The notes under the pieces: generated by a model
Databases searched by the model: none
Seen by the model: the letters and a program-made list of their open reading frames with translations, nothing else
What the model was told of the DNA's origin: nothing
Translations under genes and position numbers: made by a program
From: Spirochaetia bacterium
Lineage (GTDB): Bacteria; Spirochaetota; Spirochaetia; SZUA-6; Bin103
Length of the DNA stretch: 64,000 bases
Assembly (NCBI GenBank): GCA_965203905.1
Contig: CBDBDQ010000005.1
Location: 4,224,001 to 4,288,000 of the forward strand
Direction: 5' to 3'
Part shown: positions 10,829 to 35,454 of the stretch, piece by piece
Numbering within the stretch: the first letter of the stretch is position 1
How the letters are laid out: each line of letters opens with the position of its first letter

Positions 10829-10857
10829 TTGACGGCCTGCCGTGCACGTGCGACAGT
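10829..10857 (+). promoter_or_regulatory. Putative sigma70 promoter of SBP leader A
   Basis: TTGACG-17 nt-GACAGT with TGn extension; same position relative to the uORF as in leaders B and C. Confidence 0.55.
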
Positions 10858-10885
10858 CTGACGCTCGGGGTTCGACGGATACGGA

Positions 10886-10990
10886 ATGAAGCGCCGCGAC
10901 GACAGCCAGCGCCGTGACCGGTTTCATACTGATCGCGCAGGCGGATTCCGTCTTACCTTTGTCATCTGGCAGGGCACCCCATGGCCCTGA
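10886..10990 (+). CDS. Putative leader peptide A, MKRRDDSQRRDRFHTDRAGGFRLTFVIWQGTPWP (34 aa)
   Basis: Manual translation; N-terminus homologous to the uORFs at 19156 and 25347. Confidence 0.5.
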   Translation: MKRRDDSQRRDRFHTDRAGGFRLTFVIWQGTPWP

Positions 10991-11160
10991 AAACGAGCCG
11001 CAAGAGGATACTCAAAGAACCCATACGAGCGCGGCGTGCGCCCGTCGAGTCACGCGCCGCGCGATTCAATTCGGAACTTGCCGCCTCTGTTAGACCGCCG
11101 GCGTTACGGGCACGAGAGTAGGCGGGGAACGGCAATTCACCATGCTATACTCTCAAGAAT
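10946..11160 (+). ncRNA. Candidate structured cis-regulatory RNA, copy A
   Basis: Homologous to 25797-26010; stems with compensatory changes. Confidence 0.45.
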
Positions 11161-11182
11161 CAAAGGTACGGTGTTACGAGAC

Positions 11183-13123
11183 ATGACAAGAGTGTCGATT
11201 CTCATTTTGTGCATTGCCCTGCCAGGCTCTCTGCTGTGGGCAGCAGCCGCGACCGAAGAAGAGCAGGGATCCCAGACCGCAGCCGCGGTTCCCACTGGCA
11301 GATACCTGGAGTCTCCGCTGCTGACTGCGCGAGTAAGCTCTGGAGAACTGCCTCCGGTGGAAGAGCGACTTCCGGATCAACCGGTGGTGTTCGACGCTTC
11401 CTGGAACGACGTTCCGACCGAAGACCTGGACTTTCAGGTAGGCAGGTACGGCGGAACCCTGAGAGCGGTTCGTACCCACCCCAACTGGGATGCCGACGTG
11501 TGGGCGATGTTGAAAGAGACCCTGGTAGCGTCCCCCGGTTGGATGGATGCAAATCCCAAGGACCTGCGGGGCAACGTCATCCTGGACTACGAGATTTCCG
11601 CGGATGGAACGACCTTCACCTTCACCATGCGGGAAGGGCTGAAATGGTCGGACGGTGTTCCCGTTACCACGGAAGACGTGCGCTTCACCTACGAAGACGT
11701 GCACATGAACGATGAGCTGCAGGAATTCGGCTGGGACATCCTGCAACAGTGGATGAGGGCAAGGAATCAGCCGGACGGAGAACCGATGCTGGTGGAGGTC
11801 ATTGACGACTACACCTTCCAGGTGAGCTTTCCGGAGCCCTATCCCGGCTTCATCAATAGCCTGGCAGTGTTCTGGGGCACCTACCGCGACTTTCTGAAGC
11901 CGAAGCATCACCTGATGAATTTTCACCCCGAGTATACTTCCTCGGACAAGCTCAAGGAGGCGCTGGCCGAGGCAGGATTGGAAGACAATGAATGGTACAA
12001 GCTGTTTCTCCAGGAGGACCACAACACCTGGGAGAAGACCAACACCACCGCGGTCGATTTCCCGAGCCTCTGTCCCTGGATCATTTCCGAGGTGACCCCT
12101 ACCGTAACTCTGTGGGAACGGAATCCGTACTACTTCAAGGTCGACTCGGACGGGCAACAGCTCCCCTACATCGACCTGGTGAGGTCGGAGTACGTAACCG
12201 ACAGAGAGACCATAAACCTGAAAATCGTTGCCGGTGAGCTGGATATTGTCGAACGCGAGGCAGGTGGTCCGAATCTACCGTTATTCAAGGAGAACGAGGA
12301 GCGGGGCGGCTATAACGTGACCCTGCTGCAGCAACACTTCGCGCCGGTCGACATATACCTGAACATGACCCATGCGGACCCGGTGTGGCGAGGGCTCGCA
12401 CAGGACGTCCGGTTTCGCCAGGCGCTGAATATGGCGATCAACCGCCAGGACATCATCGACAAGGTGTTTTACGGGTTTGCGTCGCTGCCTGAGGTGGTGC
12501 CCAGCGCCTACGATCCGGCGCGAGCGAATGAGCTCCTGGATGAGATCGGATTGACCGCGCGGGATGGCGACGGCAACCGACTGGGACCGGACGGCGAGCC
12601 GCTCCTGATACCGATCGAGTGGGCGCCGGAGTCCCCGGACTTTCAGCCGGTGGTCGAGCTGCTGACCCGGGACTGGACGGAACTGGACCTCGACGTGACG
12701 CCGAAAGAGCTGCAGCAGGACTTGCTCCATGAGCGCGAGCGCTCGAACGAGATCAAGATCAGCCTGAACTGGGACGACCTGGAGAAGTGGTGGCTGTTCG
12801 CCACCATCTGGGGCTCGCCGAGATTCGCTACCCATTCGTGGCACCTGTGGTATACCAGCGGCGGCGAATCGGGGGAGCAGGGTCCCGACTGGGTGTACGA
12901 GTTCTTCGACCAGATCGCGGAGGTACGGTCGTCCTCCTATGAGGACGCGCAGCGGCTGGTGAAGGGCGCTCAGCAGATCATGTATGACAACATCCTCTAC
13001 ATTCCGACCGTGCAGAAACTGAGGAAGCCGCTATTGACTTCCGTCAAGCTGGGGAATGTACCTACCAGTGGCATGGTCCTGGTCGGCGTCAACAGCGGCG
13101 AGCAGCTCTTTTTCAGAGAGTAG
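11183..13123 (+). CDS. ABC transporter family-5 substrate-binding protein
   Basis: Signal peptide, GELPPVEERLP, LKWSDGVPVTTEDVRF, RNPYYFKVD..GQQLPYID. Confidence 0.92.
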   Translation: MTRVSILILCIALPGSLLWAAAATEEEQGSQTAAAVPTGRYLESPLLTARVSSGELPPVEERLPDQPVVFDASWNDVPTEDLDFQVGRYGGTLRAVRTHPNWDADVWAMLKETLVASPGWMDANPKDLRGNVILDYEISADGTTFTFTMREGLKWSDGVPVTTEDVRFTYEDVHMNDELQEFGWDILQQWMRARNQPDGEPMLVEVIDDYTFQVSFPEPYPGFINSLAVFWGTYRDFLKPKHHLMNFHPEYTSSDKLKEALAEAGLEDNEWYKLFLQEDHNTWEKTNTTAVDFPSLCPWIISEVTPTVTLWERNPYYFKVDSDGQQLPYIDLVRSEYVTDRETINLKIVAGELDIVEREAGGPNLPLFKENEERGGYNVTLLQQHFAPVDIYLNMTHADPVWRGLAQDVRFRQALNMAINRQDIIDKVFYGFASLPEVVPSAYDPARANELLDEIGLTARDGDGNRLGPDGEPLLIPIEWAPESPDFQPVVELLTRDWTELDLDVTPKELQQDLLHERERSNEIKISLNWDDLEKWWLFATIWGSPRFATHSWHLWYTSGGESGEQGPDWVYEFFDQIAEVRSSSYEDAQRLVKGAQQIMYDNILYIPTVQKLRKPLLTSVKLGNVPTSGMVLVGVNSGEQLFFRE

Positions 13124-13204
13124 TCGGAGTTCGCCTGCTGGTTACCGCGTGGCGCTGCGGCCGGGAGCCTCGGCGCCACGCCTTCAGCAACATCGTAGCG
13201 CAGC

Positions 13205-14203
13205 ATGGTAGGATATATTCTCGGCCGTATCCTTCAGGTGGTGCCGCTGTTGATCGCTCTGTCCATCGTCAGCTTTCTCATCATCGAGCTTCCCCCCGGC
13301 GATTATCTGACTTCCCTCATCTTGCGCCTGGAGCAGTCCGGCAAGCAACTCAACGACGAAGAGGTGCTGCGGCTGAAGAAACAGTACGGTCTGGATAGAC
13401 CTGCGGTCGTCCGTTACTCCATGTGGATATGGAATATTCTCAGCGACGGGGACTTTGGCAGATCCTTTACCTGGCAGAGACCGGTAGCCGAAGTAATCAC
13501 CGAGCGCATCGTCTTGACCATGGTCATATCGATAGCTACCCTGCTGTTCACCTGGGTGGTGGCGGTCCCGGCGGGTATCTATTCGGCGCTCCGGCAGTAC
13601 TCTCCATTCGACTACGTTACCACGTTCTTCGGCTTCATCGGGTTGTCGACTCCCAACTTTCTGCTGGCGCTGATCCTGATGTGGTTGGCCTTCAACCATC
13701 TCGGTGTGGCAGTGACGGGGCTGTTCTCTCCCGAGTATGCGGATTCCGCCTGGAGCCTGGCCAAGGTAGGGAACATGCTCAGCCACATCTGGGTACCCAT
13801 TCTGGTCATAGGCACGGCCGGTACCGCAGGGATTATCCGCGTGATGCGGGGATGCCTGCTGGATGAGCTCCGCAAGCAGTACGTAGTCACCTCGCGCGCC
13901 AAGGGGTTGGCCGAGACCAGGTTGGTGTTCAAGTATCCGGTGCGGGTCGCGGTCAATCCGCTGATCAGCACCATTGGTTGGCTGTTGCCGGCGATTATCT
14001 CCGGAGAAACCATAACGGCGATTGTCCTGAACCTTCCGACTTCCGGCCCGATGTTGTTCCAGGCGCTGCTCGCTCAGGATACCTACCTTGCCGCGAGCTT
14101 CGTGTTGATCCTGGCATTCTTGACCATAATCGGAACCTTGATCTCGGATCTTCTGCTGGTCTGGCTGGATCCCAGAATCAGATACCAGGGTGTTGCCAAG
14201 TGA
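13205..14203 (+). CDS. ABC transporter permease (OppB/DppB-like)
   Basis: LPPGD, GDFGRSF, EAA-like loop (YVVTSRAKGL), terminal DPRI. Confidence 0.92.
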   Translation: MVGYILGRILQVVPLLIALSIVSFLIIELPPGDYLTSLILRLEQSGKQLNDEEVLRLKKQYGLDRPAVVRYSMWIWNILSDGDFGRSFTWQRPVAEVITERIVLTMVISIATLLFTWVVAVPAGIYSALRQYSPFDYVTTFFGFIGLSTPNFLLALILMWLAFNHLGVAVTGLFSPEYADSAWSLAKVGNMLSHIWVPILVIGTAGTAGIIRVMRGCLLDELRKQYVVTSRAKGLAETRLVFKYPVRVAVNPLISTIGWLLPAIISGETITAIVLNLPTSGPMLFQALLAQDTYLAASFVLILAFLTIIGTLISDLLLVWLDPRIRYQGVAK

Positions 14204-15312
14204 CTGCGACCGAGGTCGCAAGAGATCGCGAAGAACGCTACTATGTCGCCTCGCAATGGCAACTTATCTGGAGGAACTTCAAGAAACACAGGCTCGGATT
14301 GGCCGCATTGCCGGTACTTGGTTGTCTCTATTTCCTGGCCGTATTTGGCGAGTTTGTCAGTGCCTACACCCCGTTGACCTACTTTCGGGATCGCGAGAAC
14401 GTGCCGCCGCAGAGGATCCACTTCGTGCGCCCGGACGGTACCTTTCAACTGCGCCCGTTCATCTACGGGTTGCAACAGGAGATGGATCCCGACACGTTTC
14501 GGCAGGTGTACCGGCACGATACCACAAGCATCGTTCCTCTGCGCTTCTTCGTGACGGGTGAACCGTACAAGATGTGGAACCTGTTCCACGCCGACAAGCA
14601 CCTCTTCGGAACCGATGGAGAAGCTGTCTTTCTGCTCGGCACGGACCGCTTGGGGCGGGATCTCTTGTCGCGGGTGATATATGCGTCACGCATCTCTCTG
14701 ACCGTGGGTCTGGTCGGGGTGATAATGACGTTCGTGTTCGGACTCGTGCTCGGCGGCGTGTCCGGCTACTTCGGCGGCGTGATCGATACGGTGGTAATGA
14801 GAGCGATTGACTTCGTAATATCGTTGCCGACCATTCCCCTGTGGATGGCGCTGGCGGCGGCGCTTCCGGAGAGCTGGAGCTCGATTCAGGTCTATTTCGC
14901 CATTACCCTCATCTTTTCGATCATCGGTTGGGCCGGCCTGGCGCGCGTAATCAGGGGAAAGCTCCTGGCGTTGCGAGAAGAGGACTTCGTGATGGCGGCG
15001 AAGATCTCCGGAGCCTCCAACGCCAGCATTATCGGCAGGCATCTGCTGCCATCGTTTGCCAGCTATCTCATTGTAAACCTGACGATCGCGGTACCCTCGA
15101 TGATCCTCGGCGAAACCGCCTTGAGTTTTCTGGGTCTGGGGATTCGCCCTCCCTCGGTAAGCTGGGGTACGTTGCTGCAGGACGCCCAAAAGCTACAGGT
15201 ATTGGCCCATCAACCCTGGCTGCTGATACCGTGCATCTTCGTGATCGTTACGGTATTGATGTACAATTTTCTCGGTGACGGACTGCGCGATGCCGCTGAT
15301 CCCTATCGATGA
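14200..15312 (+). CDS. ABC transporter permease (OppC/DppC-like)
   Basis: LLGTDRLGRD, ETALSFLGLG, WGTLL, GDGLRDAADP; GTG start overlaps the upstream stop. Confidence 0.92.
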   Translation: MTATEVARDREERYYVASQWQLIWRNFKKHRLGLAALPVLGCLYFLAVFGEFVSAYTPLTYFRDRENVPPQRIHFVRPDGTFQLRPFIYGLQQEMDPDTFRQVYRHDTTSIVPLRFFVTGEPYKMWNLFHADKHLFGTDGEAVFLLGTDRLGRDLLSRVIYASRISLTVGLVGVIMTFVFGLVLGGVSGYFGGVIDTVVMRAIDFVISLPTIPLWMALAAALPESWSSIQVYFAITLIFSIIGWAGLARVIRGKLLALREEDFVMAAKISGASNASIIGRHLLPSFASYLIVNLTIAVPSMILGETALSFLGLGIRPPSVSWGTLLQDAQKLQVLAHQPWLLIPCIFVIVTVLMYNFLGDGLRDAADPYR

Positions 15313-15338
15313 ATCGCTGAATCGCCGAGGTTTGAGGA

Positions 15339-16901
15339 GTGAGCACGTTGACGGCGAATGATGACAACGTTTCCGGACAGATCGAAAGAATGTCGAGCCT
15401 TGTTCCCCGGGCGCGCGAGCTGCGTGAGAGATACCAACGGGATCCGCACCGGCCGGCGTATCATTTCGTTGCCCCGGAAGGTATCTGCCACCCGTTCGAT
15501 CCGCAGGGCTGCATCTATTGGAAAGGGAGGTGCCACCTGTTCTACGCATACCAGGTGGAGGGCGTGGGCGTGTGGGGACACGCCTCCAGTGCCGACCTGG
15601 TGCACTGGATCCATCACCCGATCCCGTTGGGAGTGTCGCCCGGGGACCCGGAGGAACAGGTCTACGCCGGCGGCTCGCTGGTAAACAAGGATGGCGTGCC
15701 GACCATGATCTACCACGGGGTGAACGCCGGCACGTGCATTGCCACCAGTGAGGACGACGAATTGATCCATTGGACCAAGCATCCGGCAAATCCGGTGATC
15801 CCCAAGCCCAGGGAGGGTGATGATGGCTATGGCAAATACCATGTCTGGGACACCTGCGGCTGGCTCCACGAGGATACCTACTACTCCATTTGCGGGAACC
15901 ATCCGTTCGAGCTTCCCGAATCGGACGGCGACACAGCCTACCTGTTCCGCTCTCACGACCTGGTCAACTGGGAGTATGTCCATCCGTTTTATCAATCCGA
16001 CCGGCGCTGGACGGAGGCGAACGAAGACTGCTCCTGTCCCGATTTCTTTCCGATCGGGAACAAGCACATGCTCATGTTCATCAGCCATACCCACGGCACC
16101 CAGTACTACCTGGGCAGCTACGACGGGGAGAGATTCGTGCCCGAGCGCCATGCTCGGATGAGCTGGGCGGGCGGACCCCTGTTCGCGCAGGAGAGCCTGC
16201 TGGCTGGAGACGGCAGGCGCATCTTCTGGGCCTGGGTGTTCGAGTCCCGGTCGCGGAACGCGCAACTGTCCGCCGGCTGGGCGGGGGTGATGAGTCTTCC
16301 TCGGGTGCTGTCCCTCGGCCAGGATGGCACTTTGCTTATCGAACCTGCCGAGGAGCTGCAGATGCTCAGGCGGAACTACCGCCGGCAGGAAGGTGTCGGC
16401 CTTGCGGACGGGTCGGAAATGAGATTGAAGGGGATGGAAGGGGACTGCCTGGAGCTCGCTCTCGAGGTAGACGATCCCCGTGGGCAGCAGCTCGGGGTGA
16501 TGGTGCGTTGTTCTCCGGATTGCGAGGAGCACACCGTGATTCTGTTCGACGACGAGGCACGGACGCTGCAGGTGGACACCTCGCGCTCCAGCTTGAGCCC
16601 GGAAATCGTGCAACCGTGGCCTCAACACGGCACCTCCTTCTCGCCCAATCCGCTGGACGGGCGGGAAGATGTCCGGGTCCAGAAGGCGCCCTTCGAACTG
16701 GCGCCCGGTGAGCCGCTCAGACTGCGGATCTTCCTTGACCGCTCGATTCTGGAGGTGTTTGCCAACAGCCGGCAGTGCGTGACGCAGAGAATCTACCCGA
16801 CGCGAAGCGACAGCATGGGGGTAAGGCTGTTCAGCCGAAAGGGCCGCATCTCGGTGCGGTCCATCGAAGCCTGGGATATCACCGCGGCCAACCCCTGGTA
16901 A
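15339..16901 (+). CDS. Glycoside hydrolase family 32-like protein with non-canonical active-site motifs
   Basis: HRPAYHF..FDPQG, WGHASSADLVHW, SLPRVL, IFLDRSILEVFAN; CSCPD in place of WECPD. Confidence 0.85.
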   Translation: MSTLTANDDNVSGQIERMSSLVPRARELRERYQRDPHRPAYHFVAPEGICHPFDPQGCIYWKGRCHLFYAYQVEGVGVWGHASSADLVHWIHHPIPLGVSPGDPEEQVYAGGSLVNKDGVPTMIYHGVNAGTCIATSEDDELIHWTKHPANPVIPKPREGDDGYGKYHVWDTCGWLHEDTYYSICGNHPFELPESDGDTAYLFRSHDLVNWEYVHPFYQSDRRWTEANEDCSCPDFFPIGNKHMLMFISHTHGTQYYLGSYDGERFVPERHARMSWAGGPLFAQESLLAGDGRRIFWAWVFESRSRNAQLSAGWAGVMSLPRVLSLGQDGTLLIEPAEELQMLRRNYRRQEGVGLADGSEMRLKGMEGDCLELALEVDDPRGQQLGVMVRCSPDCEEHTVILFDDEARTLQVDTSRSSLSPEIVQPWPQHGTSFSPNPLDGREDVRVQKAPFELAPGEPLRLRIFLDRSILEVFANSRQCVTQRIYPTRSDSMGVRLFSRKGRISVRSIEAWDITAANPW

Positions 16902-16926
16902 CCGCGGCATCAAGAGATCAGTTCAA

Positions 16927-18901: not shown

Positions 18902-19099
18902 GGATGCGCCAGGAACGTACCATCTCGGCCAGGGGCAGGCAACCGAGCCCGCTCCGGCGATCGCGTGACCGGGCGGCTGACATCTTCCTGATCAGCAATC
19001 GCTCGAGCGCTTCGACCTCGCGGTCGTGATCTTGCGTCCCCGTAAGAGATTCGCCGAGCTGCCGTGAAACGCGGCTTGGCTCGCTCGGCTCACGCGCGC

Positions 19100-19127
19100 T
19101 TGACGGTTGGCGGTCGTGTGGTACAGT
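19100..19127 (+). promoter_or_regulatory. Putative sigma70 promoter of SBP leader C
   Basis: TTGACG-16 nt-TACAGT with TGn extension. Confidence 0.6.
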
Positions 19128-19155
19128 GACTGCTTCGGGAGTCGGAAAGCCGCTC

Positions 19156-19239
19156 ATGAAGCGCAGTGACACATCCCACCGCAGCCGCCGGTTCGCTCCA
19201 ACGCAACCGGTGCGTCCCCCCCGGCAGGCAGTCGCGTAA
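19156..19239 (+). CDS. Putative leader peptide C, MKRSDTSHRSRRFAPTQPVRPPRQAVA (27 aa)
   Basis: 13 of the first 22 aa identical, without gaps, to the uORF at 25347. Confidence 0.5.
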   Translation: MKRSDTSHRSRRFAPTQPVRPPRQAVA

Positions 19240-19559
19240 GCCACGCACAAGTAAGCAATAGCGTTACCCAACCCGGGCTGCGTGCAGCCTTGCGGCAGTA
19301 CCCGACACCTCCAATCCTCCGGCGTTGCCGGACCTGGGAGCGAAGCGCTGGCGACCGGCCGGTCCGTGCAAGGGGGTGTCCGTGACGAGATAGACCACGC
19401 CACGGGACCCGCGTAACGCCGCGTCGCGCACGCAGTTCCCGAGTAGCACATGGGCTGCCCGCCTCGCTAATGGCCGCCTGCGGTCGATGTAGGCAACGAG
19501 AGCAGGCGAGGGGCCGGGCCGTGAGATCGGAGAATGCTCTCGAACGAGATCGGAGGTAA

Positions 19560-21098
19560 TTCGCCCCGGTAGTCGAGAAACTCGTCATCGGCGACTGGGC
19601 GATCGGCGGGAGCGAGCATAACTGGCGCAGCTATAACGTGCCGTTCTCGGTCATGCAAGGACAGTTGGCGGAGAGTTGGGAAACGCCGGACGCCACCACG
19701 ATCATCGTCAAGGTCCGCCCGGGCGTTTACTGGCACGACAAGCCACCGATGAACGGTCGGGAGCTGACCGCCAGCGATATCGAGTTCAACTATCATCGCC
19801 TCTTGGGGCTCGGCAGCGGTTTCAGCGAACCCACGCCGTTCAGTTGGACACTCCCTGCCGTCACATCCGTGACGGCCACCGACAAATCGACGGTAGTCTT
19901 CAAGCTGACGAGGCCAGACCTCTTTGGGGTGCGCAAGGCATTCGACACGTGGGATACGTGGATCTACCCTCCGGAGGTCATCCAGCAACACGGCGACATG
20001 AAGGATTGCAGGAATCTGGTGGGCACCGGGCCCATGGAGCTGACGGACCTGGTGGAAGGCAGCTCTTGGACGTGGACCCGGGTTCCCGACTACTGGGGGT
20101 TCGACGAGAAGTTCCCGGACAACCGCCTGCCCTACGTCGACGAGCTGAACGCCCTGGTCATGCCGGATGCGGCGGCGCGGATCGCGGCCCTGCGCTCGGG
20201 TCAACTCGATATGTTGGCGACTCTCGGCGACTCTCAAATGAGGTCACTCGACCAGGTGGAGAGCCTGCGCCGGACCGATCCCGACATCAGGATGTGGGAG
20301 ATCGCGTTTCGGTCCGACAACGCATTCTCCTTCGTAAACCAGCAGAATCCGCCTTTCGATGACATCCGGGTACGCCGCGCCATGCAGATGGCTCTGGACC
20401 TGGAGACGATTGCGAACACCTACTTCAAGGGTTTGGCCGATCCGACGCCACAGGGAATGATCCACAGCGACAATGCCGGAACTGGCACGCCGTTCGACGA
20501 GTGGCCGGAGGAGGTCAAGCAGTACTACCGCTACGATCCGGAACGGGCCAAGCAGCTTCTGGCCGAGGCGGGCTATCCCGATGGCTTCAAGACCCGGCTG
20601 GACTATGGGAACCGCTTCGATGCGAACTACGCAGAGCTCGTCATTGGCTACTGGGGTGAGATTGGCGTCGACGTCGAGCTGTCCGTTAAACCCGGGCCGG
20701 AGATGGTAGCCATCCAGCGGGGGCATACGACGGACGGAATGATGCACTTTTCCAGCGCTGCCACCTACGCCGATGCCGGCACGCTGAAGGCGGTTTTCAC
20801 CTCCGGCTCCACCAGCAACTTTGGCAACATCAACGACCCGGATTTCGACGCTCTGATCGAACGCGCAGAGGCAGCCACGACGCTGGAGGAACGGAATCGG
20901 CTCACCAAAGAGGCGAATCTGTACGCCATAGCCCAGCACTGGGAAGCCGTGGGTCCGACCAGCCCGCAGTTCAACGTCGCCCAGCCGTGGGTCAAAGGCT
21001 ATGACGGGGAGATATCGCTCGGCATGCAGGGCCAGTTCTTGACGCTGACGGCCCGCGTCTGGATCGATCAGGATCTGAAGCGGGAGATGGGATTCTGA
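19560..21098 (+). pseudogene. 5'-truncated family-5 substrate-binding protein (signal peptide and N-terminus deleted)
   Basis: Frame open from 19560 (FAPVVEKLVIGDW...GQLAESWE), aligning to about residue 90 of the paralog at 26029; in-frame TAA at 19557 directly after an orphan GGAGG. Confidence 0.75.
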
Positions 21099-23786: not shown

Positions 23787-23787
23787 A

Positions 23788-25346: not shown

Positions 25347-25445
25347 ATGAAGCGCCATGATGACAGTCAGCGCAGTGACGGGTTGGCGGTGACGCAGCCG
25401 ATGCACCCCCCCCCACCCACACTTTTCGAACCGACGAACAACTAA
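25347..25445 (+). CDS. Putative leader peptide B, MKRHDDSQRSDGLAVTQPMHPPPPTLFEPTNN (32 aa)
   Basis: Homologous to the uORFs at 10886 and 19156, with synonymous substitutions. Confidence 0.5.
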   Translation: MKRHDDSQRSDGLAVTQPMHPPPPTLFEPTNN

Positions 25446-25796
25446 CCGCTCCGGCTGATCGCCCCGTACGCAACCCCGCGCACGCCGTCGCCTTCACTAC
25501 CGCCGTAGCTGTCGGTGGCACCGGCTCCGTCCATCGCCGAACCGGCATGCGGGCCGCCCGCACCGTTATCGTCGACCGCGACCGTGCCGGATCCGCGCCC
25601 GCGACTGACTGCCGGCAAAACCCACCTCCGGCGTCGCCGGTCAATCAGACTCGCTGCTTCGCCGACCACCGCCGCGCGGGCGTTGTGACGCAGGTCCCGA
25701 CCTCCGGCGAGCGGTCGGCGTTTGCACGATCGGGCGCCCACCCGCTGCGCGCACCGCACCCCATCTTACGTCTATTGCCCACCCGAGACAGGCAGC

Positions 25797-26010
25797 TTCC
25801 GTCACGCATCTGGCAGGGCACCCTGTGCCCCAAGAGAGAGAGGTGCAAAATGATACTCAAAGAATCTCACGCGCGCGCGGCGTGAGCCCGGGTGAACCCG
25901 GCTGAGTCACACGCCGCGCGCTTCACAAATTGACTCAGACTGGCCGTCCGCGTTGCGGGCCCGAGAGTAGCCAGGGAGCGGCAGTCCGCTCCGCAATACT
26001 CCAAAAAACC
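25797..26010 (+). ncRNA. Candidate structured cis-regulatory RNA, copy B
   Basis: Homologous to 10946-11160; 12-bp stem 25873-25884/25910-25921. Confidence 0.45.
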
Positions 26011-26028
26011 TGATTTATGGAGAAAACC

Positions 26029-27858
26029 ATGAATGTTATCGTAAGCATCACCAGGAGCTTCGCAGTTGCGTTGGTCCTGGTGCTGGCCGCGACCGGCCTC
26101 TGGGCCGCTGGCGCTGAAGAGCAGCCGGCAGCCGCTGCCGACAAGAAGTATGTGACCGACCCCGCCACCGGCGAGGTGGTGGTGGCGCCACAGTACGGCG
26201 GGACATTGACCATCGCCCTGACGTCAACGCCCCCGGAAGTGGACAGCTGGTACGGGCATCCTTCGATGAGCGCCTACACTGGCGATGTAGAGAGGCTAGG
26301 CATCGCGAACTGGGGAATAGATAGGAGCGTGAATGATCTTAAAGGCACCTTCAGGTCTCCAGAAGTCCTCGTAGGGTTGCTGGCTGAAAGCTGGGATATT
26401 TCCCCGGACGGCCTCACCTATACCTTCCACATCCGCAAGGGCGTTCACTGGCATAATGAGGCGCCGGTGAACGGTCGGGAGCTAACTGCCTATGATATCG
26501 AATATAACTATCACCGCTATTTAGGTCTGGGCAGCGGCTTCACCGAAGGTAGCCCCTTTCTTGCCCAGTGGGAAGCACTTGACGATGTGGGAATCGAATC
26601 GATAACGGCCACCGACAACTATACGGTTGTTTTCAAGCTGGCGCGGCCACACCTCGATGCGCTGAAGGTTATCGTGATCACCAACCCTGCTGTTATCAAT
26701 GCTCCCGAGGTAATCAAGGAATATATAACTACTGAGGAGCCACACGGCCCTATTCCGGATTACAGGGCCCTGGTCGGCACCGGGCCCTTTATGCTGATTG
26801 ACTTGATCGAGGACACATCTATGACCTGGACCAAGAATCCTGACTACTGGCGCTACGACGAAAAGTACCCGGAGAACCGCTTGCCCTATGTCGACGAGAT
26901 AAGGGCCCTGGTTATACCAGAAGAAACAACACGTCTGGCGGCACTGCGCTCGGCTAAGATTGATCACATGGGTTGGATGTTTGGTAGTAATATTTCTATC
27001 GAGGTGGCAGAGGGCCTCAAGCGGACCAACCCGGAACTCCTGCTGCACGAGACTTCATTAGGTTCAATGAGTACTGCTTTTTTCAACACGCGCATTCCAC
27101 CCACTAACGACATCAGGGTGCGCCACGCAATGCAAATGGCACTGGACCTCGAGACCATTAACAATACCTACTTTAAGGGTGAAGCAAGTACGACACCTGA
27201 GGGGTGGTTAGGGAGAGGTTTGGTCGGGTATGTCACCGCATTTGAAGACTGGCCGGAAGACATCAAGCAATACTACAGGTATGACCCGGAAGGCGCAGAA
27301 GCGTTGCTTGATGAGGCTGGATATCCGCGCGGTGCCGACGGCATTAGATTCGGGACCGACTTGGAGGTCAGGTGGGATCCGGCGGGATTTTCATATGATT
27401 TGGGCTTTTTTGAAGTAGCCGCGCCATACTGGAAAGAGATTGGCATTGATGTAGAGGTGAAGCCGCTCGAAACGGCTGTTTGGGCCGCTCATATACGAGA
27501 AGCTACTTATGAAGGTCTCACCAGTCATAGCAACATGGAGTTCAGCCCTATCATTCCGCTAACACTACTTCTCTCGACCTCAACATGGAACATGCCCTTA
27601 ACACAGGACCCGGTTTATGACGCTATGGTTGAAGCCGTCCTCGACGCTACCACCCATGAGGAGCAGCAGAGGCTGGTTAGTGAGGCAAATATGTACATTA
27701 CAACAAACCACTGGCAGTTGTGGGGTCCTAGAGTACCTCAGTATAGAGTGAGCCAGCCGTGGCTCATCGGTTATAACGGTGAAGTGCCAGTGCAAGGTCT
27801 TAACATCCTCGCCCGCCTCTGGATTGACTCAGAGCTGAAGGCAGCAATGGGTCATTAG
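26029..27858 (+). CDS. ABC transporter family-5 substrate-binding protein
   Basis: Signal peptide (GLWAAG), PQYGGTL, LAESWD, GTGPF, NRLPYVD; alternative start 26017. Confidence 0.92.
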   Translation: MNVIVSITRSFAVALVLVLAATGLWAAGAEEQPAAAADKKYVTDPATGEVVVAPQYGGTLTIALTSTPPEVDSWYGHPSMSAYTGDVERLGIANWGIDRSVNDLKGTFRSPEVLVGLLAESWDISPDGLTYTFHIRKGVHWHNEAPVNGRELTAYDIEYNYHRYLGLGSGFTEGSPFLAQWEALDDVGIESITATDNYTVVFKLARPHLDALKVIVITNPAVINAPEVIKEYITTEEPHGPIPDYRALVGTGPFMLIDLIEDTSMTWTKNPDYWRYDEKYPENRLPYVDEIRALVIPEETTRLAALRSAKIDHMGWMFGSNISIEVAEGLKRTNPELLLHETSLGSMSTAFFNTRIPPTNDIRVRHAMQMALDLETINNTYFKGEASTTPEGWLGRGLVGYVTAFEDWPEDIKQYYRYDPEGAEALLDEAGYPRGADGIRFGTDLEVRWDPAGFSYDLGFFEVAAPYWKEIGIDVEVKPLETAVWAAHIREATYEGLTSHSNMEFSPIIPLTLLLSTSTWNMPLTQDPVYDAMVEAVLDATTHEEQQRLVSEANMYITTNHWQLWGPRVPQYRVSQPWLIGYNGEVPVQGLNILARLWIDSELKAAMGH

Positions 27859-27954
27859 CGTTTTCACACCTTTGTGGCTTAGCAAAAAGGGTGTCAGGGA
27901 GGTTGCGTGCGGAGCGCGCCTCCCGGCCCCTCACTTATTGAATAGGATGGCCCC

Positions 27955-29859: not shown

Positions 29860-29962
29860 GGCCGGCGCAAATATAAATCCACGTAGATAGACGTAATCAA
29901 GCCGTTATCGGTACGCTGGATGGCGGTATGGACGCGGTAGGACGGTTTGTTGTGGCGTTTCT

Positions 29963-30193
29963 GGCTACTACACTCTTGATGAACTCATCGACTTCGGCCA
30001 ACACGGGCTGTGGTCGTTCCACGACGTGCGGTTCTCGGCCGCCGGTACCCTGCTGGCCACCACCACAGCGGTGGTCAGCGCTGCGCCAGCGGGACAGTTC
30101 AGCGAGGAGTTGGACAACCTGCTGCACGTCGGTATTCAGGATGCCTGCGCAAGCTCGTCCAGCAGCGCAAGCTGACGCGCCAGAAGGTTGGCG
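29963..30193 (+). pseudogene. Frameshifted fragment of a hypothetical protein resembling the accessory ORF of ISAzo13-like elements
   Basis: GYYTLDELIDFGQHGLWSFHDVRFSAAGTLLAT...ELDNLLHV, frameshift, then LRKLV; family assignment from memory. Confidence 0.45.
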
Positions 30194-30295
30194 GGCTATA
30201 ACGGGGAGATATCGCTCGGCATGCAGGGCCAGTTCTTGACGCTGACGGCCCGCGTCTGGATCGATCAGGATCTGAAGCGGGAGATGGGATTCTGA
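30194..30295 (+). pseudogene. 3' remnant of the SBP gene (copy of 20997-21098)
   Basis: Direct sequence match ending at the same TGA. Confidence 0.85.
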
Positions 30296-30365
30296 TTTAG
30301 CTGTTGGCACATGACGAAGTGGGATGGCGGCGCAGGCCGCCGTCCCACACCCGAGCCCGCCTGCA

Positions 30366-31331
30366 ATGCGAACCTACATCATCCGCCGCGTCCTGCTGCT
30401 GATTCCGACGTTCCTGCTGCTGACGGTCCTGGTGTTTCTCTCGGTGCGCTTCCTGCCCGGCGACGTCGTCGACGCCATGATGGACCGGCTGTCGAGGCGC
30501 GAAGGCGGGATGGAGCACTTCGACCGCGAGCGGGTCGAGCGCATGCTCGGGCTCGATGTGCCGGCGCCGGTGCAGTACGTACGCTGGCTGGGCGGCATCT
30601 TCCTGCACGGCACCCTGGGCGAGTCACTCCTTGGCGGAGTTGCGGTCGAAGAAAAGATCATCGGCCGGCTGGCGATCACCGTCGAGTTGGGCGTGCTGTC
30701 CATCCTCATCGGCCTGGTGATCGCGGTGCCGGTGGGCATCTACTCGGCGGTGCGGCAGGACACCGCGGGCGACTACGCCGGCCGTTCCATCGCCATCATC
30801 GGCCTGGCCACGCCCAACTTCTGGCTCGCCACCCTGGTGCTGACCTTTCCCGCAATCTGGTGGGCGTGGGCGCCGCCGCTGCGCATGGTGGCGTTCGCCG
30901 ACGATCCGCTGCGCAACCTCGGTCACCTGTTCATTCCCAGCCTCATACTGGGCACCTACCTGTCGGCCACCGTGATGCGCATGACGCGCACCATGATGCT
31001 GGAGGTGCTGCGCCAGGACTTCATCCGCACCGCCTGGGCGAAGGGACTGCGGGAGCGGGTGATCATCCTGCGGCACGTGATCAAGAACGCGCTGATCCCG
31101 GTGGTGACGCTGATCGGGCTGCAGTTGCCGATCCTGGTCGGCGGCTCGGTGATCATGGAGAACATGTTCGCGCTGCCGGGTCTTGGGCGGCTGATGCTGG
31201 AGGCGCTCACCGCGCGCGACTACCCGGTGGTGTCGGGCGTCAACCTGTTCTTCGCGACCGCGGTGATGACGATCAACCTGTTGATCGACATCCTGTACGG
31301 CTACCTGGACCCGCGGGTGCAGTACCGTTAG
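30366..31331 (+). CDS. ABC transporter permease (DppB-like), near-identical paralog of 21169
   Basis: Only a handful of aa differences from 21169..22134. Confidence 0.92.
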   Translation: MRTYIIRRVLLLIPTFLLLTVLVFLSVRFLPGDVVDAMMDRLSRREGGMEHFDRERVERMLGLDVPAPVQYVRWLGGIFLHGTLGESLLGGVAVEEKIIGRLAITVELGVLSILIGLVIAVPVGIYSAVRQDTAGDYAGRSIAIIGLATPNFWLATLVLTFPAIWWAWAPPLRMVAFADDPLRNLGHLFIPSLILGTYLSATVMRMTRTMMLEVLRQDFIRTAWAKGLRERVIILRHVIKNALIPVVTLIGLQLPILVGGSVIMENMFALPGLGRLMLEALTARDYPVVSGVNLFFATAVMTINLLIDILYGYLDPRVQYR

Positions 31332-31410
31332 GAGGCTGGCGCGTGCGACAGACTCCTGACGAACGGTGGGGAAGGGCCGAAAGCGGCGCCGTGGCGCCGC
31401 TTTCGGGGCG

Positions 31411-32370
31411 ATGAACCAGTCCAAACCCCGGCCCTTCCTGCTCGACCTGGTGCGGCGGCTGGCGGCGGAGCGGCCGCTGGGGGCGGCGAGCGCGGTGGTC
31501 GTCCTGCTGCTGGTGGTGATCGCCATCTTCGCCGACCTCCTGGCACCCTTTCCGTTCGCCGAGATGCACCTGATCGACCGGCTCAGCGGCCCGTCGGCCA
31601 CCTACCTGCCGGGCACGGACCAGCTCGGCCGCGACGTGTTGAGCCGGCTGGTGTACGGCGCCCGCACCTCGCTCGGGGTGGGCTTTGCCGCCACCATACT
31701 GAGCACACTGGTGGCGCTGCTGGTGGGCGGCGTGGCCGGCTTCGTGGGCGGCAAGCTGGACATGTTGCTGCAGCGCGGCGTCGACGCCTGGATGTCGTTC
31801 CCCGGCCTGTTGCTGCTGCTGACCATCATGACCGTGGTGGGGCAGGGCATCCCGCAGATCATCGTGGTGCTCGGGGTGACCTCCGGCATCGGCAACTCGC
31901 GGGTGATCCGCAGCGCGGTGATCGGCATCAAGGAGAACGCCTACTTCGAGAGCGCGCGCGCCATCGGCGGCACCGCGTGGCACACGCTGCGGCGCCACGT
32001 GTGGCCGAACATCACGGCGCCGGTGCTCGTGACGTTCTCGATCACCATCGGCGGCATCATCATCGCGGAGGCCAGCCTGAGCTTCCTGGGGTTCGGGCTG
32101 CCGACCACGGTGCCGAGCTGGGGCGGCATGCTGAGCCGGGAGGGGCGCCAGTTCATGGAGATGGCGCCGCGGCTGGCGATGTGGCCGGGGGTGGCGCTGA
32201 CGGTGGTGGTGTACTGCCTGAACATATTCGGCGACGCGGTGCGCGACCTGCTCGACCCGCGGCTGCGCGGCAGCGGCGGCAGCGCCGCCGGCCTCGGCAG
32301 CGGCGGCATGAGCGCCCGCGCCATCGAAGGCGCCCGCCGCGCCCTGCAGAAGGCCGACCGCTCCACCTGA
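31411..32370 (+). CDS. ABC transporter permease (DppC-like), paralog of 22229
   Basis: GTDQLGRD, EASLSFLGFG, GDAVRDLLDP. Confidence 0.9.
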   Translation: MNQSKPRPFLLDLVRRLAAERPLGAASAVVVLLLVVIAIFADLLAPFPFAEMHLIDRLSGPSATYLPGTDQLGRDVLSRLVYGARTSLGVGFAATILSTLVALLVGGVAGFVGGKLDMLLQRGVDAWMSFPGLLLLLTIMTVVGQGIPQIIVVLGVTSGIGNSRVIRSAVIGIKENAYFESARAIGGTAWHTLRRHVWPNITAPVLVTFSITIGGIIIAEASLSFLGFGLPTTVPSWGGMLSREGRQFMEMAPRLAMWPGVALTVVVYCLNIFGDAVRDLLDPRLRGSGGSAAGLGSGGMSARAIEGARRALQKADRST

Positions 32371-32444
32371 CCCGGCGCCAGGTATCCGGCACGCTGCCAG
32401 CGGCGCGCCGGACGCTACTTCTTTGTCCGGCTGCGCGGGCGAGG

Positions 32445-33443
32445 TCAGCCGCGCTGGTCGCGTAATCGCCGGAGCGCGGCCAGGAAATCCGCCTCATCCG
32501 CGCAGCCCAGTGCCGCCGTCAGCAGCGCCTCCTCGGACGCCGCGGCAAATGCCTCCGTAGTGGTGTCGAACGTCGCCGACACTTCGATGCCCCGTGACCG
32601 CAGAATCTGACGGACCATCTGCGCGCGGCCTTCCGCGCGGGCTTCGGCGCGACCTTCCGCACGACCATGCTCGAACCCCTGGCGCCGCTGCGCTCGCAAC
32701 AGCAGGTCGTCGTCCGGGCCGGTTCCTTCGCGCGCGCCGAGCGCCGCGGCAACCCGCTGCAACGCCGCGCTGGTGCGCGCCGACAATACCGGCTCGTTCA
32801 GCGCCACGTGAATCTCTTCCGCCCGCCAGCCGGGAAACGCCCGGCTTTCGGCCGCAACCCGGAACCGACCGTGCTCCAGCAGGTGAATCGTCAGTCCCGG
32901 GCGGCGCCGGTGGGGCCGGCTCGGTGACGGCGTGTCCGGCACCTCCACCCACACCTCCGGGAAGCCCCACGACTCGTACCGATCGAGCTTGCCGCGGTGG
33001 ACGTCGGTGGTGTGATCCACTTCCAGCACCACGTCGGGAAAGTCATCCTCGCCCACCACCATGGCCGCGGGCCCCGGCCTGGCCCGCGCCGGATGCAGGT
33101 ACACCGACTCGTCCGCCTGCATGATGCGCCGCGGCTCCCCCTCGGAGTCGCGCAGCAGCAGGTCCATCGAGCCGTAGCATTCGATCGGCGACCCGCGCAC
33201 GCCGGCAATCCGCTCGGCCAAGCGCGTCAGCAGACGCGATGGCCGCTCGTGATAGGGAGTGGTCGGATCGCAGATCCACGCGGTCTCGGTGCCCGCATCC
33301 CAATACTCGAGCCGCCCCTCGAAGCGATCGATCTCGGTGCGCGGCAGGCGAACGGGCTTGCAGCCGGGGAACGCGGGCGACTTGGCACGCCGGGATTGCG
33401 CTCCCTCACGCAGCCCGGTTGCCGGTGCTTCGGTGCTGGCCAT
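32445..33443 (-). CDS. Uma2 family (DUF820, PD-(D/E)XK fold) endonuclease-like protein
   Basis: MQADES.Y, PDVVLEVD, KLDRYESWGFPEVWV; GRAEGRAE tail. Confidence 0.8.
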   Translation of the reverse strand: MASTEAPATGLREGAQSRRAKSPAFPGCKPVRLPRTEIDRFEGRLEYWDAGTETAWICDPTTPYHERPSRLLTRLAERIAGVRGSPIECYGSMDLLLRDSEGEPRRIMQADESVYLHPARARPGPAAMVVGEDDFPDVVLEVDHTTDVHRGKLDRYESWGFPEVWVEVPDTPSPSRPHRRRPGLTIHLLEHGRFRVAAESRAFPGWRAEEIHVALNEPVLSARTSAALQRVAAALGAREGTGPDDDLLLRAQRRQGFEHGRAEGRAEARAEGRAQMVRQILRSRGIEVSATFDTTTEAFAAASEEALLTAALGCADEADFLAALRRLRDQRG

Positions 33444-33519
33444 GGCGCCAGCGTAGCCCACCTCTCGCGGGCATGCAAACCGAACGTTCCAGATCCGCAG
33501 CTTACCGTAGCACTCGAAC

Positions 33520-33585
33520 GGCGTTCGTCCGCCATGCGGTGCCCCGGTTCAGAGTTGCTCCTCGATCCACTTGCCATCGTGCGCG
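33520..33585 (-). repeat. Copy of the 3' end and downstream DNA of the clan AA protease gene (18483-18548)
   Basis: ggcgttcgtccgccatgcggtgccccggttcagagttgctcctcgatccac shared. Confidence 0.85.
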
Positions 33586-33664
33586 CCTATAGTCGCCAGG
33601 TATGGTCGCTGTGGTACGGCCTGGCGCTGTTGGCGGGGCATGCTCCCACGCGTATCATGGTGGC

Positions 33665-34051
33665 ATGGGTGCGTTCATGGTCGAGTGTAAGCTGCGGGAT
33701 GTCGCCCAGAGCGGTCCTGAGAAGACGATCGCCGCGGTGCTGGTGGACACCGGTTCGGAGTACACTTGGCTTCCGGAGGACGTTCTCCTGGCGGCGGGTG
33801 TCACAGTCGCTAAGAAGGACCTCGCGTTCGTGATGGCCAACGGCATGACCATCACGCGAGATGTTGGTTATGCCTTCCTTTCCAGTGGGGAGTTCGAGAC
33901 GGTGGACGAGGTTGTGTTCGCCCGCTCGGAAGATCTGAGTTTGCTCGGCGCCAGAACGCTGGAGGGATTCGCCGCGCGGGTGGATTCGCGCGAGAAGCGT
34001 TTGGTCGCCGCAGGGCCGATTCCTGTCGCAGGTACTGTCGCGGTCCACTGA
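33665..34051 (+). CDS. Clan AA aspartic protease (second, distinct subfamily)
   Basis: VLVDTGSEYTWLP; LLGARTLEGF. Confidence 0.85.
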   Translation: MGAFMVECKLRDVAQSGPEKTIAAVLVDTGSEYTWLPEDVLLAAGVTVAKKDLAFVMANGMTITRDVGYAFLSSGEFETVDEVVFARSEDLSLLGARTLEGFAARVDSREKRLVAAGPIPVAGTVAVH

Positions 34052-34145
34052 CTCCACCGTGGGACGACACAAGTGTCGCGGGGCGTGGTTTGCCGCCGCC
34101 GTCGCATCCAGCGCGGGTAGAGGTCGCGAGACACGACGGCCGACG

Positions 34146-34895
34146 TCCGCCTCATTCGTGCAGCCCAGCGCCGCCGTCAGCAGCGCCTCCTCGGACGCCG
34201 CGGCAAACGCCTCCGGAGCGGTGTCGAACGTCGCCGACACTTCGATGCCCCGTGACCGCAGAATCTGGCGGACCATCTGCGTGCGGGCTTCCGCGCGACC
34301 CTCTGCGTGGCCTTCCGCACGACCTGCCGCGTGGCCATGCTCGAACCCCTGGCGCCGCTGCGCTCGCAACAGCAGGTCGTCGTCCGGGCCGGTGCCTTCG
34401 CGCGCGCCGAGCGCCGCGGCAACACGCTGCAACGCCGCGCTGGTGCGCTCCGACAGTACCGGCTCGTTCAGCGCCACATGGATCTCTTCCGCCCGCCATC
34501 CGGGAAACGCCCGGCTCTCGGCCGCAACCCGGAACCGACCGTGCTCCAGCAGGTGAATCGTCAGTCCCGGGCGGCGCCGGTGGGGCCGGCTCGGTGACAG
34601 CGTGTCCGGCACCTCCACCCACACCTCCGGGAAGCCCCACGACTCGTACCGATCGAGCTTGCCGCGGTGGACGTCGGTGGTGTGATCCACTTCCAGCACC
34701 ACGTCGGGAAAGTCATCCTCGCCCACCACCATGGCCGCCGGCCCCGGCTTGGCCCGCCCGGGATGCAGGTACACCGACTCGTCGGCCTGCATGATGCGCT
34801 GCGGCTCCCCTCGGAGTCGCGCAGCAGCCGGTCCATCGAGCCGTAGCACTCGATCGGCGACCCGCGCACTCCGGCGATCTGCCCGGCCAAGGGCG
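34146..34895 (-). pseudogene. Truncated, frameshifted second copy of the Uma2 gene
   Basis: Highly similar to 32488-33230; 5' end and last codons missing; frameshift near 34810. Confidence 0.85.
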
Positions 34896-34911
34896 TCAGA
34901 AGACGAGGGGT

Positions 34912-35005
34912 CCCGGTTCAGAGTTGCTCCTCGATCCACCTGCCATCGTGCTCGATGATGCCGCTCTCAGCCCGGATTTCATCCGCTCGATTGACCAACG
35001 TGATT
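34912..35005 (-). pseudogene. Internally deleted remnant of the clan AA protease gene
   Basis: Matches 18505-18546 joined directly to 18831-18885. Confidence 0.85.
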
Positions 35006-35033
35006 GACAGGCCTGAGCATCCTGGATTAGTAT
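35004..35033 (+). promoter_or_regulatory. Putative sigma70 promoter of SBP leader D
   Basis: TTGACA-18 nt-TAGTAT. Confidence 0.5.
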
Positions 35034-35454
35034 GATTCTCGGCGTCAGGGCAGTTTCAATGCGTGTGACCGGCAATGACAACAGACGTCGACAGCAGACA
35101 TCACCCCCTACCTCGGGCGACGCACGGCAGCGCGCTCGCCATTCCCGCGAAAACACTCACCTGAGGCTCAGTACCCACCGGAGGCGCACGTCTCAGCGTA
35201 GCACCAGGAAGGACCTGCCCGCAGCCCGCAGGAGGTGCGTCATGATTCTCAGGACCGCCCACGACTGAATGGACTGAGCCCGGTTGCCCCGGTGCACTGC
35301 GCGGGAGGCGCGTGAGAGGAGGCATGCGCGCACCCGCACGAGAGGAGCACCGACCGGCGACTCACCGGCGCTGGCAGCAAGCCGGCGCTGCATCCTCTCC
35401 TGGAATCGAGCAATCGAGATCGTCGATCGGACAACGCAGAGTCAGGAGGTAGTG

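Follow-up and report, generated by a model that had tools for sequence, protein, structure and literature searches.

The trp and his leaders are the classical examples of ribosome-mediated attenuation, and Rho-dependent leader attenuators with a translated leader open reading frame (ORF) are known from the tna operon of Escherichia coli (tnaC) and from Salmonella mgtA (mgtL) and mgtCBR (mgtP, with proline codons and elongation factor P, EF-P). Homopolymeric tracts are phase-variation devices generally, and in Treponema pallidum poly-G tracts are reportedly present at the tpr promoters. Homologous promoter-bearing intergenic segments that lie upstream of different genes are known as 'mobile promoters'. 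Here we describe a family of leaders from a sponge-associated spirochaete, found in a 64,000-nucleotide stretch of its genome (the window; contig CBDBDQ010000005.1) upstream of genes for the solute-binding proteins (SBPs) of ATP-binding cassette (ABC) importers. Sponge symbionts possess very large sets of ABC importers and are not cultivable, and their control elements must therefore be read from sequence.

The best-supported reading of the data is that the leaders of three SBP genes in the window, A, B and C, belong to a family of conserved, transcribed leader cassettes that is present in one genus only and is set in register before importer genes. The leader looks like an undescribed shared control cassette, and no account of such a family was found in a full-text literature search of limited coverage. 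It is a composite 5' leader with three separable modules (M1, M2 and M3) and a length of 350-740 nt, and it probably drives and co-regulates the operons of an expanded set of family-5 SBPs.

Like the tna and mgtA attenuators, the leader has a short upstream ORF (uORF1) with proline codons 5' of a C-rich, poorly structured stretch, so that the progress of the ribosome could decide Rho loading, and genes for Rho and EF-P are present in the genome. Unlike these attenuators, the proline run is a hypervariable homopolymer (C5-C55) within a three-module leader that has a second mini-ORF (uORF2), and the leader is common to ~40 paralogous operons, with tandem promoter-uORF units possible; Rho-dependence is putative in the present case. 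The likeness to the trp and his leaders lies in a leader peptide with a run of one type of codon ahead of the structural genes, as uORF1 is short and has a conserved ATG and a proline run. In contrast to trp and his, a scan of 19000-36000 shows no intrinsic terminator (GC stem and U-run) in leaders B, C and D on the sense strand, and the stem P1 of M3 is followed by CUUCAC and not by a U-run.

Three modules upstream of importer genes

Coordinates are whole-window positions unless marked G000, which denotes the window's own genome (7.99 Mb, 66% G+C). Four SBP_bac_5 genes are recognised by Pfam in the window, in the order A, C, B and D, and each has permease genes nearby; these lie downstream on the + strand for A, B and C, and downstream on the - strand for D (37319-39248). 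Reading of the sequence confirmed the landmarks that a preliminary description of this DNA had given for the four leaders, namely a TTGAC(A/G) at 10829 (A), 19100 (C), 25292 (B) and 35004 (D), followed after 57, 56, 55 and 55 nt, respectively, by an ATG at 10886, 19156, 25347 and 35059.

Leader B was split into M1 (25286-25394, + strand), M2 (25423-25724, +) and M3 (25839-26032, +), and homology was called with one nhmmer profile per module, built from the genome's own copies; these profiles replaced a whole-leader MAFFT alignment that was uninformative. The M1 profile matches leaders A (E 1.4e-19), B (E 2.5e-27) and C (E 6.1e-6), the M3 profile matches A (E 1.6e-37) and B (E 4.4e-58), and the M2 profile matches B alone (E 1e-85). 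Thus, of the modular homology that had been proposed for A, B and C, the sharing of the 5' and 3' parts of B by A is borne out, by blastn as well as nhmmer, and so is the sharing of the 5' part by C. The middle part that C was thought to share is not recovered, the best M2 match in C being a ~20-nt motif at E 2.5. Leader D, which had been counted as a fourth member, has no M1 match and only a weak M3 match (35230-35285, E 0.15), and it is not a clear member of the family on these data.

Distribution in the genome and among relatives

Leader B matches ~70 places in its own genome. A profile search of the genome for homologues had been proposed, and iterated nhmmer profiles returned 40 M1, 34 M2 and 34 M3 copies in 50 loci, far beyond chance. 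The order of the modules is invariably M1, M2, M3 on one strand over the 50 loci, and in 39 of them an SBP_bac_5 ORF begins at most 350 nt downstream on the same strand. The random positions or orientations relative to genes that would mark a decayed repeat are therefore not what is seen, and the same strict placement sets the leaders apart from miniature inverted-repeat transposable elements (MITEs) and insertion sequences.

At two further loci, an inserted reverse-transcriptase gene parts the leader from its M3 and SBP. The break in these two leaders (G000 C5 5100555-5102417 and 7566182-7567489) falls at the identical place between M2 and M3, directly after 30 nt that match window positions 25807-25836 at 100% identity. 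The inserted gene lies on the opposite strand and has an RVT_1 reverse-transcriptase domain; it may be a group II intron or some other retroelement with this sequence as its target. In addition, one M1-M2 precedes two oligopeptide-type ABC ATPase genes, and another M1-M2 that lacks M3 (G000 C5 4727600-4730800) stands directly before a homocysteine S-methyltransferase gene instead of a transporter gene. The remaining loci are fragments.

For a census of SBP genes, a local hidden Markov model (HMM) was built from the four SBPs of the window; a strict GC3 gene caller had missed SBP genes. With this HMM, ~190 SBP_bac_5 ORFs are found in the genome, 51 of them in a close subfamily (score >360 bits). 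The leader is carried by ~41 of the ~190, and the earlier claim of a leader before every SBP gene thus holds for the window, where all four genes have one, but not for the genome. The ~190 SBP_bac_5 ORFs in 7.99 Mb represent an extreme expansion, and relatives in the family show 12 to >65 matches each. At four loci (G000 C5 5140529, 7736658, 6673663 and 2310952) the frame that opens with the ATG at the end of M3 closes after 6-117 codons, and at the first two a long SBP ORF begins ~300 nt further downstream; these may be frameshifted genes, homopolymer assembly errors, or cases where the wrong ATG was chosen.

Outside this genome, a DNA search finds M3 in seven of ten further genomes of the genus, five of which have tens of copies, and in none of the 13 genomes of the sister genus or the 17 from other families. 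A covariance model applied to 92 genomes of the order likewise matches in 7/10 of the genus, 0/13 of the sister genus and 0/68 of other families (0/81 outside the genus), in agreement with the suggestion of a lineage-specific element. An exact two-block M3 pattern, searched against 185,579 species genomes, occurs in 27 stretches from four records, whose titles name Spirochaetia metagenome-assembled genomes (MAGs) or, for one record, an unclassified 'bacterium' MAG. The (M1)n-M2-M3 order recurs in other species, and at 11 of 11 other-species loci examined, homology to SBP B follows M3.

Leader RNA in sponge metatranscriptomes

Contigs of four sponge metatranscriptome runs, from three studies, were mapped on 24900-30000. 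Contig depth, which sums paralogues and relatives, lies between 0 and 6.5 for both bins 5' of M1 (24900-25241) and reaches 168-4110 from the M1-bearing bin (25242-25412) onward, with lower values over M2 and high ones again over M3 and the coding sequence (CDS). The contigs are mostly 90-95% alike and therefore derive from paralogues or relatives. Both M2 and M3 are covered, one contig extends from M3 into the CDS, and M1-M1 junctions are present in some. The leader family is abundant in the RNA libraries, and where transcription starts and stops is not readable from the contigs. The M2 dip was considered as a site of termination, and the uncovered region upstream of M1 as marking a start site; both were rejected, because the depths sum paralogues and the contigs are without ends.

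M1, a candidate promoter with a leader peptide

In an alignment of 40 M1 copies, a TTGACA and, 17 nt on, a TGn-TAGCAT-like box are both conserved, and by their sequence these are a sigma-70-like -35 box and an extended -10-like box. In leader B, the -35 box is TTGACA at 25292-25297 and, behind a 17-nt spacer, the -10-like box is TGC-AAGCAT at 25312-25320. The boxes are followed by two in-frame ATGs and next by a conserved peptide, M(P/V)MKRHDDSQRSDR(L/F)AVTQPVH. For codons 1-16 of uORF1, the ratio of nonsynonymous to synonymous polymorphism (pN/pS) is 0.59, as compared with 1.00 and 1.08 in the other two frames, and third positions vary most; this pattern suggests a coding signature that is modest but real. 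In leader B, uORF1 (25347..25445, +; a further in-frame ATG is at 25341) reads MKRHDDSQRSDGLAVTQPMHPPPPTLFEPTNN and stops at a conserved TAA.

M1 is often present in tandem with a period of ~126 nt, with up to four units in the window's own genome and up to eight in a relative. These arrays, together with the poly-C tract, the open third frame and the second mini-ORF described below, had gone unseen in the preliminary description.

A hypervariable poly-C tract and three reading frames

What had appeared to be a polyproline stretch of uORF1 is a homopolymeric, hypervariable run of C that is read as proline. The tract is C9 in leader B (25406..25414, +), ranges from C5 to C20 in this genome, and reaches C55 in a relative. 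Of the 50 C/G runs of at least 8 in the genome, 18 fall in leader loci, all 18 with C on the sense strand. At four other loci (G000 C5 5126968, 6663028, 4736503 and 2751166), C/G runs of 8-10 lie 150-350 nt 5' of genes of the SBP subfamily that have no detectable M1-M3, again with C on the gene strand, and more diverged leader types with the same tract may exist there.

Directly after the tract stands a conserved string, AACTAACCGCTCCGGCTGATCG, through which one frame ends at +3 with TAA (in all 27 anchored copies) and a second at +16 with TGA (in 24 of the 27); both of these short frames have 1-6 stops before M3. The third frame, frame c, is free of stops as far as the uORF2 region in all 15 copies for which that region could be placed. 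It amounts to ~100-150 codons and is in phase with uORF2 in 12 of the 15, over a distance that varies from 109 to 412 nt. For instance, frame c of leader B (25442..25885, +) has 147 open codons from just past the tract to the stop of uORF2, and is not joined to uORF1 at the present C9. Of 43 terminal M1 copies, 17 currently lead into the long frame, as compared with 7 into one short frame and 6 into the other.

This arrangement is suggestive of a contingency locus, in that a long homopolymer lies within uORF1, its length changes the frame, and the three frames differ in their fate. As at described contingency loci, a long G/C homopolymer lies between promoter and gene, and its length differs by copy and species and sets the frame. 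Unlike those loci, the tract is in a leader ORF instead of a promoter spacer or a structural gene, and it serves dozens of nutrient-importer operons of a symbiont instead of pathogen surface antigens. In Haemophilus influenzae, simple repeats in 5' untranslated regions (UTRs) reportedly act post-transcriptionally (PMC12721329). It is conceivable, if unlikely, that the tract is a phase-variable switch, whereby slippage in poly-C shifts the frame of uORF1 and importer operons flip on and off stochastically, the long frame across M2 either shielding the RNA from Rho or coupling translation into M3. Such a switch would overlap with the mechanism that we favour below, the signal being mutational instead of physiological. 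It would account for the C5 to C55 range among paralogues and species, for the concentration of long C runs in leaders, for the conserved stops at +3 and +16 beside an open third frame in phase with uORF2, and for the excess of terminal copies in the long frame. However, common descent of the copies makes their counts interdependent, selection against stops was tested at low power (P ~0.29), and leader A has no tract. Moreover, the orthologous group of the copy at G000 C5 4846737 keeps a short, interrupted tract across strains. In its widest form, which is less probable still, the tract would toggle between an early stop and a shielding frame of ~100-150 codons in ~40 importer operons, the shielding frame extending over a spacer for Rho loading as far as the stem of a folded RNA that would gate the SBP start, and leaving each cell with a stochastic subset of importers, with the tandem M1 arrays setting the strength.

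A different explanation of the open frame is that it is a real small protein gene of ~130-180 aa, reading from the M1 ATG through frame c to the uORF2 stop and co-transcribed with the SBP. Every copy examined keeps the frame open, codon position 1 is enriched in G (0.38, vs 0.24 at the other two positions), and 116 unnamed predicted homologues with E down to 1e-86 are present in metagenome assemblies. These homologues are, however, ORFs of gene callers from the same kind of DNA, and so provide no independent evidence. Over the first 40 codons past the tract, pN/pS of frame c is 1.27, not below the off-frame values of 0.89 and 0.85, and there is no excess of third-position variation; the product has no Pfam match at E up to 1, and in most copies the frame is not joined to a start codon. 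We therefore regard a small protein gene as very improbable. By the same measure, signs of purifying selection on the encoded amino acids are mixed, with pN/pS values of 0.59 for codons 1-16 of uORF1 and 0.58 for uORF2 (off-frames of both together 0.85-1.17), and 1.27 in the M2 part of frame c.

The C-rich M2 spacer and Rho

Over 43 copies of M2, the content of C is 0.41 and that of G 0.27, with a C/G ratio of up to 3.1 in leader B just after the tract. The predicted fold of M2 is no more stable than that of shuffled controls (z -0.42), with no pairing predicted over the first ~50 nt. Rho classically loads on poly(C) and on unstructured RNA rich in C. The genome encodes EF-P and also Rho, the latter in an open frame of 573 aa that matches PF07497 with 116 bits, and the leader resembles a Rho-dependent attenuator in having a C-rich, G-poor, weakly structured RNA 3' of a leader ORF. 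In E. coli, ribosome stalling at polyproline together with downstream rut sites leads to a Rho-dependent loss of expression (PMC5021804).

M3, a folded RNA at the SBP start codon

M3 folds well (z -3.07), and contains an AGGAGG Shine-Dalgarno (SD) sequence, the mini-ORF uORF2 with the consensus M(I/T)LKEPHARAA, the stems P1-P4, and a hairpin at the SBP start. A canonical uORF2 start is present in 65 of 82 distinct copies, and the TGA stop lies within the 5' arm of P1, a 12-bp GC stem. P2 is a small hairpin that is duplicated in some copies, P3 is a helix (GAGAGTA/TACTCTC) that encloses the hairpin P4, and the last hairpin contains the GGAG and AUG of the SBP gene. In leader B, uORF2 (25850..25885, +) encodes MILKESHARAA and has a purine-rich, SD-like stretch with GAGG (gagagagaggtg) 5-16 nt 5' of its ATG, where the family consensus is AGGAGG; the arms of P1 are at 25873-25884 and 25910-25921. 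The longest ORF of SBP B begins at 26017, and the likely start is instead the ATG at 26029, as had been assumed, because the family alignment and the SD (GGAG at 26019) favour it; the gene would thus extend over 26029..27858 (+).

A covariance model on a hand-drawn structure recovered 89 copies. In the resulting alignment, which was fitted to that model, pairing extends to 89% of cells, and a double change is seen in 21 of the 39 pairs. Covariation scores 0.126, as compared with 0.092 for shuffled data, where none of 500 attains the observed value, and with 0.061 or less once the partners are slid. Four helices are 88-96% paired, whereas the SD hairpin is paired in only 65% of cells, yet has the most compensatory changes. 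The GAGAGTA segment has two further possible partners upstream, and CTGGC/GCCAG may form a pseudoknot, all of these being 90-94% pairable. M3 is the most conserved module, with up to 93% identity between species; some copies have internal duplications and insertions, and the register to the SBP start codon is kept. No acceptable -35/-10 pair of an internal sigma-70 promoter was found in M3 by eye, and none is listed in the scan of leader B.

A conserved, folded 5' UTR at a transporter gene, with a hairpin that holds SD and AUG, is reminiscent of orphan 5'-UTR motifs and riboswitch candidates. As in the preliminary description, which recognised no known riboswitch or T-box, cmscan found no match among 4227 Rfam models over 10700-36000 at E up to 5, and at gathering scores over the whole window it found only a tRNA, elsewhere. 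The leader further differs from Rfam motifs in its many copies per genome and its restriction to one genus.

It is therefore worth asking whether M3 is the functional core, a protein- or ligand-binding element that gates SBP translation through the SD/AUG hairpin, with M1 and M2 as accessories. The conservation and structure of M3, the compensatory changes in the SD hairpin, the occurrence of M3 at several loci where no M1 or M2 is detected, and its presence before two SBPs of other subfamilies (HMM scores of 152.7 and 248.7) would all be in keeping with this idea. On the other side, M3 matches no Rfam family, the SD hairpin is paired in just 65% of cells, and it is hard to see which one ligand would suit importers that presumably differ in substrate. 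In addition, CsrA, the obvious binder of a GGA in the loop of the SD hairpin, was tried and rejected, as PF02599 has no match in this 98.71% complete genome. On balance, we consider M3 as the functional core improbable. Of the leader-peptide and RNA-switch module envisaged earlier, then, the leader peptide (through the modest coding signature of uORF1) and the structured RNA by the SBP start stand, and the switch in the sense of a ligand sensor stays hypothetical.

Conservation decoupled from the downstream genes

M3 and CDS were compared for 22 loci with a full M3 and an intact SBP gene (231 pairs), five loci having been dropped for a short ORF or a missing ATG. Mean identity is 0.72 for M3 nucleotides, 0.57 for CDS nucleotides and 0.50 for third codon positions of the CDS, and M3 identity exceeds CDS identity in 94% of the pairs, with no correlation between the two (r = -0.016). 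For instance, SBP pairs with just 27% protein identity are still 76% identical in M3. M3 is thus decoupled from the CDS, which means either strong constraint or spread and homogenisation by recombination, and these identities argue against simple co-duplication with neutral decay. In a search for an orthologue that could date the gain of the leader, the best sister-genus matches of the divergent SBP at G000 C5 3880498 (46%) were no closer than its own paralogues (44%).

The notion of a portable expression cassette, put forward earlier, agrees well with this decoupling, with M3 before SBPs of other subfamilies, and with M1-M2 before the ABC ATPase and methyltransferase genes. The leader resembles mobile promoters in that a homologous promoter segment stands before many genes and is decoupled from their divergence; it differs from them in that the downstream genes nearly all belong to one family, and in its translated and structured parts that are in register with the start codon. 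A selfish or neutral promoter-bearing repeat, spreading and homogenising by gene conversion, with M1 arrays arising from slippage and with promoter supply as its only role, could also explain the decoupling, the tandem arrays of up to 8 units, the duplications and insertions within M3, the fragments and truncated copies, and the copies before the truncated SBP C (see below) and before unrelated genes. Such a repeat would not be expected to keep a strict order and orientation to genes in 39 of 50 loci, coding signatures in both uORFs, conserved helices with some compensatory change, and a constant register with the SBP start codon; the element itself has no transposase and no Pfam domain. We rate this possibility as doubtful.

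A possible mechanism of translation-coupled control

The mechanism that we favour, with a probability of about 0.4, is translation-coupled control, whereby the progress and frame of ribosomes at the proline/poly-C run of uORF1 decide Rho loading, and termination at uORF2 remodels M3. We infer the following course of events. Transcription would start in M1, and ribosomes on uORF1 would slow at the proline/poly-C run. Translation would then either end 3-16 nt past the tract or run for ~100-150 codons in frame c up to P1, and its extent and speed would decide whether Rho loads on the poly-C and C-rich RNA, and hence whether transcription terminates before the SBP gene. Ribosomes that end at the uORF2 stop would melt P1, reshape M3, and set the access to the SBP start. 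The cassette itself may have spread among importer genes via recombination or gene conversion, beyond co-duplication.

Several observations weigh against translation-coupled control, or against the evidence cited for it. Leader A has neither M2 nor a poly-C tract, and M3-bearing loci without any M1 or M2 are seen (for instance, G000 C5 2904675, 3880289, 5998200 and 6324312); the modules therefore work, or persist, separately. The promoter of leader B, whose -10 is AAGCAT behind TGC, is not listed by the consensus scan. Singleton substitutions in frame c would be expected to create 1.23 stops and none is seen (P ~0.29, at low power), so that the openness of frame c is an observation and not a proven constraint, and in the openness counts early-stopping copies were scored merely as shorter. 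For M3, the pair counts come from an alignment fitted to the model, the copies are too similar and closely related for much true covariation, and the three partners of GAGAGTA, all at least 90% pairable, cannot be told apart by covariation. With regard to RNA, contigs that are 90-95% alike and sum relatives show no transcript 5' or 3' ends, the flank used for comparison is single-copy, and carry-over of DNA into RNA libraries is possible. As depth recovers over M3, the dip over M2 may be due to sequence divergence and not to termination.

One shared, transcribed leader has been found on ~40 importer operons per genome, and if it is regulatory, it provides a handle on the global nutrient-uptake programme of an uncultured lineage. 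If the Rho/EF-P mechanism is true, this would be a natural and massively reused case of translation-coupled attenuation, and if tract length matters, contingency loci would be extended from pathogen surface antigens to symbiont metabolism. The tandem promoter-uORF arrays and the independence from gene divergence also make the leader a clear example of how a regulatory cassette spreads through a genome.

The remaining leaders and neighbouring genes

M1 of leader A (10826..10924, +) has a promoter-like TTGACG at 10829 and the start of uORF1, which here encodes 34 aa (10886..10990, +; MKRRDDSQRRDRF...). M3 of leader A (10994..11178, +), supported by nhmmer and alignments, is a structured RNA in which the start of uORF2 is lost, with AGG for ATG. 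Behind SBP A (11183..13123, +; Pfam), the stretch 13205-18441 contains a pair of permease genes and a pair of GH32 genes for fructan/sucrose hydrolases. A sugar oligomer is the probable substrate of at least this 'peptide-type' SBP operon.

The consensus promoter and terminator scan covered 19000-36000, with leader A outside its range, and lists the promoters of leaders D (10/12) and C (9/12). M1 of leader C (19095..19197, +) has TTGACG at 19100 and a TG-extended, -10-like TACAGT, and uORF1 (19156..19239, +) reads MKRSDTSHRSRRFAPTQPVRPPRQAVA, with a C7 run at 19216-19222. The gene behind it is 5'-truncated, so that leader C adjoins a broken gene. In tblastn with full-length paralogues, homology of SBP C (19560..21098, +) begins at 19560, opposite residue ~123 of a full-length paralogue; Pfam lists 19638-21098, with the domain from residue 7. 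The ~90-120 N-terminal residues, the signal peptide among them, are missing, and an in-frame stop lies just upstream. SBP C is thus probably a pseudogene fused to a partial leader.

Leader D has a promoter-like site (35004..35033, +; TTGACA, 18-nt spacer, TAGTAT) and a uORF of 69 aa (35059..35268, +) that ends in MILRTAHD, a uORF2-like mini-ORF (ATG at 35242) after AGGAGG at 35230, and it precedes SBP D (35455..37257, +; Pfam). No second copy was found anywhere in the genome by blastn, and only its 3' ~170-190 nt are conserved, in two relatives. At best, leader D is a remote relative of the family and not a demonstrable member.

A segmental duplication links loci C and B, with 20997-23184 matching 30194-32354 (97.6% identity over 1221 nt and 90.8% over 941 nt). 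The duplicated part comprises the permease pair of locus C and the last ~100 nt of SBP C, repeated 3' of the locus B operon, and locus B therefore has two permease pairs; no ATPase gene was seen near it. Just 5' of leader B, at 24192-25001, is a 269-aa ORF with HicB-like antitoxin and RHH domains, and between loci B and D, at 32445-33461, is an ORF with a weak likeness to Uma2-family nucleases.

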